64,000 nt of DNA from Rickettsiales bacterium (GTDB lineage Bacteria > Pseudomonadota > Alphaproteobacteria > Rickettsiales > CANDYO01). The notes under the pieces are model-generated. The model was not told the DNA's origin, did not search any database, and saw only the letters and a list, made by a program, of their open reading frames with translations. Made by a program: the position numbers and the translations under genes. The stretch is from the NCBI GenBank assembly GCA_049653745.1, contig JBASGW010000073.1, forward strand, positions 22,924 through 86,923. The letters are read 5' to 3'. Of the stretch, positions 29,166-35,939 are shown piece after piece (position 1 is the stretch's first letter; the number at the start of each line of letters is the position of its first letter).

Positions 29166-31547
29166 ATGTTCGGTAATTTCAAGAAAGATAAAAGTCTAGA
29201 GTTTGCTTTAAAGCCTGTTGAAGATCATGTTATTCCATATGCTTGCCATTATGACAATAAAAGTTTGTTAACTAAAAATGGTGAGTTAATGCAGGTTCTT
29301 AGAATTGAAGGCTATTCTAAAGAAATGATGAATACTTCAGTGCAGGTGGATTTAAGATCTATAATTAGGCATTCGATAACTGAAAATATTAAAGACCGTA
29401 AAGTTGCTTTATGGTTTCATACAATTAGAAGGAAAATAAATCTTGATTCAATAAATTACTTTTCTTCAACTTTTGCTAAAGATACTCATGAATCTTGGGC
29501 AAAAAAGAATTATTGGCGCAATAAATTTGTTAATGAATTATATATAACAATTTTATATGAAGGTGCCGGACATGGTAATCCTGCGTTAACTTTCACTCCT
29601 AAGCTGTTAAAAGAGCATCATCTTAAAGTATTGCAAGAGCATGAGCAAAAGCTTGATGAGGTGGTGCTAAAAATGCTTGAGGTTCTTAAGCCTTATGGTG
29701 GAAAAAGATTAGAAGTTGCTCATGATAGTGTGGGAGCGCATTCTGAAATTCTAGAATTTTTAACTAAAATTATTTGTCTTCATAGTGAAAGAGTTCCTTT
29801 GCCAGTACAAAGTATTGATAATGTGTTTCTAGAAAGTAATATAGCTTTTGGTGGTACTTCTATAGAGGTGTTAAATAAAAATAAGAAACGCTTCGCAGCT
29901 GTTTTTTCTTTTAAAGAATATCATGAATTTGCAGCCAAGGCTTTAGATAGATTTATGAGTATAGCTGCAGAGTATATAATTTCTCAAACTTTAACTTTTG
30001 TTGAAGCAAAAGAAGCAAAAAAAACCTTTGAATATTTTAACTATATTCTTAGTGTTAGTAAAGATGCTGAGTTAAGAGAAAATTGTGGACTAGCTTCTAC
30101 TTTAGATGGAGATCTTAACGGCAGCACAGATTATGGAACTCAACAAATGAATTTCATGATAGTTGCAGAATCGTTAGAAGAATTAGATGGGTCAGTTAGC
30201 AGGGCTATTAAAGAGCTAAATAAACTAGGCGTAAGAATTATTAGAGAAGATTTAAATATTGAGCTTGGTTTTTGGTCGCAGCTTCCTGGAAATTTTAAAT
30301 TCTTTCGTCGGCCAAGTTATATAAGAACTAATAAATCTGCTAGTTTTGCTTCTCTTAATAATAATCCCTCAGGAAAAACCGATAATATTTGGGGATCAGC
30401 TGTAACTTTATTCCGTAGGAATGATGGAGGGCCGCATTTCTTTAACTTCCATGTAGATAATATAGGACATACTCTTATTGCAGGTCCTGGAGATTCAGTC
30501 AAAAAAACCTTAGTAAATTTCTTATTATCAGAGTCAACAAAGTATAATCCTGAAGTATTATATATTGATCAATTTTCAAATTCTCAGGTCACAATAAAGC
30601 TTTTAGAAGGAAAATATGCAACCATCAGTGTTAAGAAAGAAGCGCCTGCATTTAAATTTAATCCTTTTAAAATGCCTGATAATTCAGAAAATCGTGAGTT
30701 TCTAAAAAATTGGATACTGCTTCTACTAGCTACAGATGATGTGTTAACTGAAGAACAAAATCAGAAGATTTTTAATTATTTGGATATTTTCTTTAGTCAA
30801 GTCCCTGTTGAAATGAGACAAATTTCAATGTTAGCTGAGTTTTTTGAAGATGAAGTTTTAAAAGATAAGTTATTATTATGGTGTAATCCAAATAAATTAG
30901 GTTTGTTATTTGATAACTCCTGGGATGACTTAGATAATGGAACTAAGCTTATAGGGTTAAATATTGAAGAATTAGTTATTGATAAAAATAATTCTGCTAC
31001 AAATGCATTAATTGCCTATTGCTTATATAAATATTCAATTATGCATGAAGAACAGCCCTATCCACCAACAATGATAATTATTGATGATGCAAATTTACTT
31101 ATGCAAAATGATTATTTTACAAAAATGCTACCAGCTTTACTTAGTAATTTAACCATTAAAAATATAATGGTAATTTTTGTATGTATGATTGATCATAAAA
31201 AGGGTATGAATTCAGTTATAAAAAATATTCACGAACATCTAGCCACTAAACTTTTACTGCCGTGTTTGGATTATAAGCTATATAAGGAATCTTTTTCTCT
31301 TGATACTGAAGAAGTGAAAGCTCTTAGTACAATGAAAATTATTCATCGAAATTTTATGATAAAACAAAAAGCATTAAATATGATTGTTGAATTAAATTTA
31401 GATGGTTTAGTATATGCAATTGCTGCGCTAGAGGGAGAGAACGGAGCTGTACAAGCAATGGAGATGGCTATCGCAGAAAATGGTGATAATCCAAATGTTT
31501 GGGTAGTGCCATTTTATAATTATCTATTTCCTCAATTACAACAATAG
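29166..31547 (+). CDS. virB4: VirB4/TrbE/CagE-family type IV secretion ATPase paralogue with degenerate Walker A (RvhB4-II-like)
   Basis: 793 aa. N-terminus 'DHVIPYACHYDNKSLLTKNGELMQVLRIEGYS...ALWFHTIRRK' is VirB4-like. The expected P-loop reads 'GHTLIAGPGDSVKKT' (30480-30509). The Walker B region reads 'MIIIDDANLL' (31071-). Confidence 0.75.
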   Translation: MFGNFKKDKSLEFALKPVEDHVIPYACHYDNKSLLTKNGELMQVLRIEGYSKEMMNTSVQVDLRSIIRHSITENIKDRKVALWFHTIRRKINLDSINYFSSTFAKDTHESWAKKNYWRNKFVNELYITILYEGAGHGNPALTFTPKLLKEHHLKVLQEHEQKLDEVVLKMLEVLKPYGGKRLEVAHDSVGAHSEILEFLTKIICLHSERVPLPVQSIDNVFLESNIAFGGTSIEVLNKNKKRFAAVFSFKEYHEFAAKALDRFMSIAAEYIISQTLTFVEAKEAKKTFEYFNYILSVSKDAELRENCGLASTLDGDLNGSTDYGTQQMNFMIVAESLEELDGSVSRAIKELNKLGVRIIREDLNIELGFWSQLPGNFKFFRRPSYIRTNKSASFASLNNNPSGKTDNIWGSAVTLFRRNDGGPHFFNFHVDNIGHTLIAGPGDSVKKTLVNFLLSESTKYNPEVLYIDQFSNSQVTIKLLEGKYATISVKKEAPAFKFNPFKMPDNSENREFLKNWILLLLATDDVLTEEQNQKIFNYLDIFFSQVPVEMRQISMLAEFFEDEVLKDKLLLWCNPNKLGLLFDNSWDDLDNGTKLIGLNIEELVIDKNNSATNALIAYCLYKYSIMHEEQPYPPTMIIIDDANLLMQNDYFTKMLPALLSNLTIKNIMVIFVCMIDHKKGMNSVIKNIHEHLATKLLLPCLDYKLYKESFSLDTEEVKALSTMKIIHRNFMIKQKALNMIVELNLDGLVYAIAALEGENGAVQAMEMAIAENGDNPNVWVVPFYNYLFPQLQQ

Positions 31548-35939: not shown

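Follow-up and report, generated by a model that had tools for sequence, protein, structure and literature searches.

What does a VirB4-type ATPase do once its nucleotide site has degenerated, when it stands apart from every other gene of a type IV secretion system (T4SS) and is followed at once by a gene for a giant, cysteine-rich exported protein? The question is raised by two adjoining genes on the forward strand of a 64,000-nucleotide stretch of contig JBASGW010000073.1 from a Rickettsiales bacterium, a stretch that we refer to in its entirety as the window. The first gene (29166-31547) encodes a 793-residue VirB4 paralogue of RvhB4-II type, a predicted pseudo-ATPase, and the second (31554-35939) encodes a 1461-residue exported protein belonging to an unannotated superfamily; both reading frames, and the 6 nt between them, are as an earlier reading of the bare DNA (the original prediction) had placed them. 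We find that the two genes are a conserved bicistronic module, present at more than 40 loci, whose adjacency is strict and ancient, and we read the locus as an rvh-type T4SS islet whose accessory gene, strictly linked to virB4, had gone unrecognised.

The product of the upstream gene contains both domains of its family, the N-terminal CagE_TrbE_VirB domain (PF03135; 106 bits in a profile search, in keeping with the VirB4-like N-terminus originally proposed) and the C-terminal RecA-like domain, and its residues 18-783 align with TrwK of R388, the VirB4 of solved structure (E = 1e-61). It scores best on TIGR00929 (VirB4_CagE; 473 bits across residues 21-785, short of the trusted cut-off of 643 bits) and on PRK13898 (421 bits), whereas the TrbE model gives 118 bits and the identity to F TraC is 17%, so that the expected assignment to the rvh type rather than to TrbE or TraC holds. 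Motifs were compared in alignments to TrwK and to 120 homologues, and the window protein shows no canonical Walker A in these, as had been suspected. The Walker A remnant, IAGPGDSVKKT (30477-30509), reads GPGDSVKK at residues 440-447, where TrwK has GQSSSGKT and 60 canonical homologues have GPxGxGKT; measured against GxxxxGK[ST], the Lys is kept but Gly has become Val and Thr has become Lys. The Walker B remnant, IIIDDAN (31074-31094), takes the place of the canonical hhhhDEAW (IIDDAN here against VFDEFW in TrwK), and across the window clade the two acidic positions read ND, DD, HD, RD or HN, neither being conserved. Both motif sequences had been called correctly, although their starts had been put 3 nt off (at 30480 rather than 30477, and at 31071 rather than 31074). 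Motif C reads FVCMIDHK against FATQEPSD in TrwK, and the Gln that binds nucleoside triphosphate (NTP) is gone. Among 25 aligned VirB4 proteins of the window clade, which share 46-65% identity, residues 1-470 are rich in invariant positions, of which the ATPase half has few. Judged by its sequence, then, this protein is a full-length rvh-type VirB4 with a degenerate nucleotide site. Loss of the Walker A Gly and Thr, the Walker B Asp-Glu and the motif-C Gln argues for a non-hydrolysing scaffold or assembly role, not that of a motor.

Degenerate motifs could in principle also indicate decay, the locus then being what is left of a conjugative element, whether a Rickettsiales amplified genetic element (RAGE), an F-type or a TrbE-type one. 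We consider this hardly credible, and a conjugative origin is effectively refuted by the model scores just given, which are 421-473 bits on the rvh/VirB4 models as against 118 on TrbE, by the fact that both reading frames are intact and conserved at more than 40 loci, with 34 invariant cysteines in the second, by the flanks, which are housekeeping genes without an integrase or a tRNA junction, and by a GC content that matches the surroundings. The protein instead resembles RvhB4-II, a full-size VirB4 of unknown function that carries substitutions in its NTP cleft and whose gene lies away from the other rvh islets (PMC2653234, PMC4676284). Like it, the window VirB4 is full-length, has a ruined NTP site, lies away from other T4SS islets and has its close relatives in Rickettsiales MAGs; the RvhB4-II gene, however, stands alone in Rickettsia and follows virB2 paralogues in the Anaplasmataceae, and the papers that we could search describe no conserved giant downstream of it. 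The window VirB4 thus matches the RvhB4-II kind, with which it is probably orthologous. The duplication of virB4 has been dated to the last common ancestor of the Rickettsiales (PMC9352585).

The product of the downstream gene begins with a predicted Sec-type signal peptide (residues 1-38, 31554-31667; ..LILLFFISLAFNNQTLA followed by A), read from the sequence, with cleavage probably after TLA. An n-h-c region ending in an AxA-like site is present in all giant homologues. No hydrophobic segment occurs beyond the signal in the 1461 residues, and there is no TrbL match, so we reject an origin from VirB6/TrbL. The composition is rich in Thr, Ser, Asn, Gly and Tyr and includes 63 cysteines (4.3%), and 34 cysteines are invariant in eight giant homologues that share 30-42% identity, which argues for structural disulfides and hence for an oxidising compartment. 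Searches of Pfam, NCBIfam and the PDB returned no relatives, even at permissive thresholds (Pfam E <= 5 for 14 giants). Three parts can be told apart. A core found throughout the superfamily spans residues ~42-920 (31677-34313), as delimited by hhalign, and carries the motifs RxCAR, CxYxDP and GCVDIPxGPYPPPxC. Listed with the core is an HRM-like Cys module at residues ~945-1018 (34386-34607; ..W P..T....G.C..G......R.C..). The eukaryote-type Hormone receptor domain PF02793 is matched by 4 of 42 distant superfamily members (P0168-P0239; best E = 3.6e-6), and a Cys module of this type is conserved in the window giant, there below detection. The C-terminal region (residues 921-1461, 34314-35936), which ends in GNSAxNxxMF(L/Y)WxSPTSYxV(C/S)N, is specific to the window clade. 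It is absent from the homologue in UBA6177, and in a distant subfamily its place is taken by a domain of ~160 residues (P0182, P0193, P0219, P0227, P0239; ..YDDYVLVxVNGxKxYSGP..GGGLYYxIDYKLK) with weak, sub-threshold matches to galactose-binding-like modules (Glyco_hydro_2_N, CBM-like, Bac_rhamnosid_N).

How far does the association of the two genes extend? An exhaustive HMMER profile search with the N-terminal 830 residues of the giant as query found 95 representative clusters (at 50% identity) in the giant superfamily, where word-indexed searches had given 9 and then 6 proteins. Nearly all members are large (800-1800 residues), carry a signal and contain 3-6% Cys, and none has a Pfam family. 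The distant subfamily is only ~20% identical to the window clade but homologous to it over ~900 residues (hhalign of A2 against A8: probability 100%, E = 1.1e-50, 741 aligned columns), and on these profile comparisons the giants are one superfamily. Starting from VirB4, a giant homologue lies directly downstream in 9 of 9 distinct loci of the window clade and UBA6177 (L001/L007, L002, L003/L009, L005, L006, L008, L010 and, for UBA6177, L011), the protein of UBA6177 having 922 residues and matching the N-terminal 700 residues of the giant. Starting from the giant, VirB4 lies directly upstream on the same strand in L016 and in all 29 informative metagenome loci, these being the ones that include upstream sequence among 31 fetched for the distant subfamily; a JGI contig probably has the same arrangement. 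The relatives of the window VirB4 that we examined come from 'Rickettsiales bacterium' metagenome-assembled genomes (MAGs) or from metagenomes, and the title 'Rickettsiales bacterium' MAG is also borne by six reference-genome loci with a related degenerate VirB4, one of them on a closed 1.55-Mb chromosome and another in UBA6177. In the window the TAG of virB4 (31545-31547) is separated from the ATG at 31554 by the six nucleotides cgtttt (31548-31553), and the junction measures -4 to +6 nt in 10 of 10 loci, among them the window and L016. So short a spacer argues for co-transcription and probably for coupled translation. The distant VirB4 proteins that are linked to a giant are only 26-30% identical to that of the window, and thus the pair has been co-inherited over a deep divergence. 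The synteny comparison therefore bears out the earlier suggestion that the two genes are conserved neighbours.

The original prediction had also coupled the giant to a divergent VirB4 in particular. The module stands, but its specificity to the degenerate state does not, as the giant is also found after VirB4 proteins with intact motifs and after others that have lost Walker B only. At L017 (8001-13086) a fully canonical VirB4 (P0048; GPKGSGKT, DEAW) is followed by a 915-residue protein that is a firm member of the superfamily (79 bits; BLAST 1e-19). At L018 (7463-12898) a VirB4 with canonical Walker A and Walker B (P0044) has a VirB2 gene before it and, after it, a gene for a 798-residue Cys-rich, signal-bearing protein that is a marginal member; neither VirB3 nor VirB6 is found at this locus. 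The VirB4 proteins of the 'metagenome' clade keep Walker A (GxxxxGK/RT) and have DN at Walker B, where L045 alone keeps DE. The linked VirB4 proteins thus form a series running from intact through loss of Walker B only to fully degenerate, as in the window clade, and since the giant also follows intact VirB4 proteins, the association predates the loss of catalysis. At L050 (5147-14005), 4-5 tandem TrbC/VirB2 paralogues directly precede a VirB4 that keeps Walker A but has ND at Walker B, and a 1208-residue giant comes next. At no other locus are pilin genes joined to the pair. The arrangement resembles the islet of Anaplasma and Ehrlichia in which a virB2 array accompanies virB4-2; L050 differs in the added giant after virB4, and the window locus has lost the virB2 array or never had it. 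The proposed product of the Anaplasma islet of virB2 paralogues and virB4-2 is a surface organelle that varies antigenically (PMC3556328).

These loci bear on whether the giant has anything to do with secretion. It could be an envelope protein independent of the T4SS (an S-layer-like coat, an adhesin or a cell-wall protein), with VirB4 recruited to a job other than secretion or the linkage reflecting shared regulation. The pair has no further T4SS gene close by, either in the window or at most loci, and this would fit such a role, as would the dead ATPase, which makes a classical T4SS function doubtful. The same linkage is seen, however, with intact VirB4 proteins and beside virB2 genes (L017, L018, L045, L050), and scattered T4SS islets are the rule in the Rickettsiales (PMC2653234, PMC4676284). 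We therefore think a T4SS-independent role quite improbable.

We tentatively favour a reading, to which we give slightly less than an even chance, in which the pair is a module of an rvh-type T4SS and the giant an accessory located outside the cytoplasm, most probably an adhesin of the cell surface or the pilus. The pseudo-ATPase keeps the VirB4 fold and the conserved N-terminal half, through which VirB4 docks to the inner-membrane complex, and would serve that complex of the rvh machine as a scaffold or assembly subunit that does not hydrolyse nucleotide. The giant would be translated from the same mRNA, exported by Sec and locked in the periplasm by some 17 or more conserved disulfides, and would then act as an adhesin at the cell surface or on the pilus. 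In Agrobacterium, virB5 lies directly after virB4 in the virB operon, and VirB5 is a T-pilus tip protein or adhesin. A giant directly after virB4 would fill the virB5 slot in systems that lack virB5, and the order of four virB2 genes, virB4 and giant at L050 gives positional support to a tip or adhesin role. The weak sugar-binding-like matches in the C-terminal domain of the distant subfamily lend an adhesin some further, if slight, support. The rvh systems lack a recognisable VirB5 (PMC11077975), and the rvh system of Wolbachia makes a pilus by a route that, without VirB5, is unresolved (10.1101/2025.08.29.673095).

The likeness to VirB5 is one of position after virB4 and of Sec export only. 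Membership of the VirB5 family finds no support: the 14 giants gave no Pfam match at E <= 5, and no PDB match was found. TraN of F-type systems offers a second comparison, as it too is a large, exported, Cys-rich T4SS accessory (F TraN has 22 Cys in 602 residues) and contacts the partner cell; its gene, however, is not adjacent to traC, and it belongs to another class of T4SS. Homology to TraN is likewise rejected: hmmsearch with A2 and A8 against F TraN gives -7.2 and -3.2 bits, respectively, and there is no match to PF06986. Both of the hidden Markov models (HMMs) for the giant subfamilies score negative on F TraN, TraU, TraH and TraG. An autotransporter or two-partner-secretion adhesin was considered as well and set aside, as the giant has no beta-barrel or two-partner-secretion domain in Pfam and the next gene is a convergent topA.

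The Sec signal and the many conserved disulfides of the giant, together with its tight coupling to a T4SS gene, could be those of a two-step substrate, exported by Sec, folded oxidatively in the periplasm and released through the rvh outer-membrane complex, with the pseudo-ATPase co-expressed to adapt the machine. Pertussis toxin, which the Ptl T4SS releases in two steps, is a precedent; it too is a Sec-exported, disulfide-bonded protein tied to a VirB-like machine, although there is no homology, and its genes lie ahead of a complete ptl operon instead of being paired with one dead ATPase, as the giant is. No part in recognising periplasmic cargo is known for a cytoplasmic VirB4 paralogue, the core of ~900 residues with its rigid Cys spacing looks structural rather than like a fast-evolving effector, and at L050 the giant travels with an array of pilin genes. 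For these reasons we regard a substrate as distinctly unlikely.

A giant that stays in the periplasm is a somewhat better prospect, though still an unlikely one. The protein would be a decoration of the rvh machine, comparable to a 'wing' or collar like that of Wolbachia and not exposed at the surface, and RvhB4-II would be its anchor point at the inner membrane. The adjacency evidence serves this reading as well as it serves an adhesin, and Pfam finds no outer-membrane barrel or anchor motif in the giant. Cryo-electron tomography (cryo-ET) of the Wolbachia rvh system has revealed unexplained periplasmic densities, which its authors ascribe to the duplicated components (10.1101/2025.08.29.673095). 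Wolbachia is, however, not known to have a giant, and a length of 800-1800 residues, lineage-specific C-termini and the weak sugar-binding-like matches better fit an exposed, host-facing molecule.

Several observations weigh against our favoured reading, that of a T4SS module with a surface or pilus-associated adhesin. A direct contact between VirB4, which is cytoplasmic, and the giant, which would be in the periplasm or outside the cell, is not obvious. No sequence or structural similarity of the giant to VirB5, to TraN or to any adhesin family emerged from the Pfam, PDB and HMM searches, and VirB5 is a helical protein of ~220 residues whereas the giants have 800-1800 (that of the window being six times the size of VirB5), are Cys-rich and are predicted to be strand-rich. 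AlphaFold2 models built from a 9-sequence alignment for each part of the giant were unusable (pLDDT 38.9 for the N-terminal 833 residues and 33.3 for the C-terminal 591). The reading also presupposes that rvhB4-I and the other rvh genes are present in the genomes that carry the pair, of which our analysis covers the 64 kb of the window and 10-kb flanks of its relatives. Neighbour-joining trees and mean identities leave the orthology of the giant-linked VirB4 clades to RvhB4-II unsettled; one neighbour-joining tree grouped the degenerate VirB4 proteins together, and its backbone collapsed once the metagenome clade was added. Lastly, three degenerate VirB4 proteins (L013, L014 and L015) lack a giant homologue, those of L014 and L015 being solo, and virB4b of Rickettsia stands alone (PMC2653234). 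The giant is therefore no universal part of rvh systems, and the pairing cannot be taken, as one might have read the original prediction, for a general trait of RvhB4-II.

A broader proposal can be built on the same observations, and we offer it as speculation that is, taken whole, unlikely. The giant superfamily may be the missing VirB5 equivalent of rvh systems, a pilus-tip or contact adhesin, with RvhB4-II as a dedicated, non-hydrolysing assembly subunit. An ancestral operon of virB2, virB4(II) and the giant would have been a separate 'appendage' module that arose with the duplication of virB4 in the ancestor of the Rickettsiales, shed its catalytic activity step by step, and was cut back in Rickettsia and Anaplasma.

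The surroundings of the pair vary from locus to locus. In the window its upstream neighbour is the F1 ATP synthase operon atpHAGDC, and downstream lie the convergent topA and dprA. atpC ends at 29047, leaving a gap of 118 nt before 29166 (one nucleotide fewer than had been counted). Different genes flank the pair at each related locus, and its place behind atpC is therefore incidental. We saw no terminator-like site between atpC and virB4, and read-through from the atp operon into virB4 is therefore possible. A sigma-70-like promoter candidate, TAGACA-16 nt-TATAAT (29094-29121, forward strand; 11 of 12 positions), is the top match in 28700-36300, but promoter-like sites across this interval do not exceed the number expected by chance, and it stays a candidate. 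A pdhA-pdhB-E2-fabG-acpP block is syntenic between the window (55462-59808, reverse strand) and L001, a 1.55-Mb Rickettsiales MAG (901-5218, forward strand); in L001 it is found 5 kb upstream of the pair, whereas in the window it is inverted and lies ~20 kb downstream, so that the pair evidently moves independently of its neighbours.

Several loci have further genes beside virB4. At L012 a canonical VirB4 is followed by a VirB6 protein (TrbL domain, six hydrophobic segments). At L013 (8001-15655) the degenerate VirB4 (P0063) is followed by two orphan genes, for proteins of 444 and 779 residues that are not homologous to the giant, and by a ShlB-type two-partner-secretion transporter; these may represent a different exported partner. 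Two signal-bearing proteins that are likewise not homologous to the giant are encoded directly upstream of the pair at L045 (459-5431), one of 703 residues with 19 Cys and one of 937 residues with several hydrophobic segments. Adjoining a distant VirB4-giant pair at L030 is an open reading frame (11035-12561) whose N-terminus, ..ILWPIERSELKLFVPMALMMFCVL, we take to resemble rickettsial and chlamydial ATP/ADP translocases; this presumed likeness hints that the distant clade, too, is obligately host-associated.

The rest of the window is AT-rich (~32% GC) housekeeping chromosome with some genes of host-interaction type. It contains no other T4SS gene, as had been stated at the outset, judging from Pfam searches of all open reading frames of at least 100 residues, a reading of the small open reading frames in the gaps and a search with a VirB2 HMM built from related loci. 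A 1196-residue ankyrin-repeat protein (9631-13221; 12 Ank_2 stretches, E = 5e-150) is a typical candidate T4SS effector of intracellular bacteria, and its presence and the GC content are consistent with the Rickettsiales. We also note three unusual genes of glycosyltransferase-like type, which encode a eukaryote-type GT90 protein (22866-24146; E = 1.5e-34), a DUF3431 protein (49974-51791) and a TcdA/TcdB-like DXD glycosyltransferase (53530-54570), the last of which is an effector-like candidate.

Since 2009 it has been an open question what the duplicated, dead Rvh-II components do, and a 2025 cryo-ET preprint still called their role 'a mystery' (10.1101/2025.08.29.673095). The degenerate RvhB4-II paralogue was already known. 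In those portions of the rvh literature that our searches covered, RvhB4-II is described as an isolated gene, neither a conserved giant partner nor the superfamily is mentioned, and 'cysteine-rich' does not occur in papers that use rvh terms; the giant superfamily and its conserved pairing with VirB4 accordingly appear to be undescribed. The conserved partner gene provides the first functional association for RvhB4-II, and it defines an extensive family of exported proteins that has no annotation and is linked to a T4SS gene. The graded series of VirB4 proteins, from intact through loss of Walker B only to degenerate, allows the proposed change from motor to scaffold to be put to the test. We suggest that the pair points to an outer component so far missing from the Rickettsiales secretion machine, and if the giant is indeed an adhesin that contacts the host, it would be a candidate for a factor that sets the host range of protist-associated Rickettsiales.

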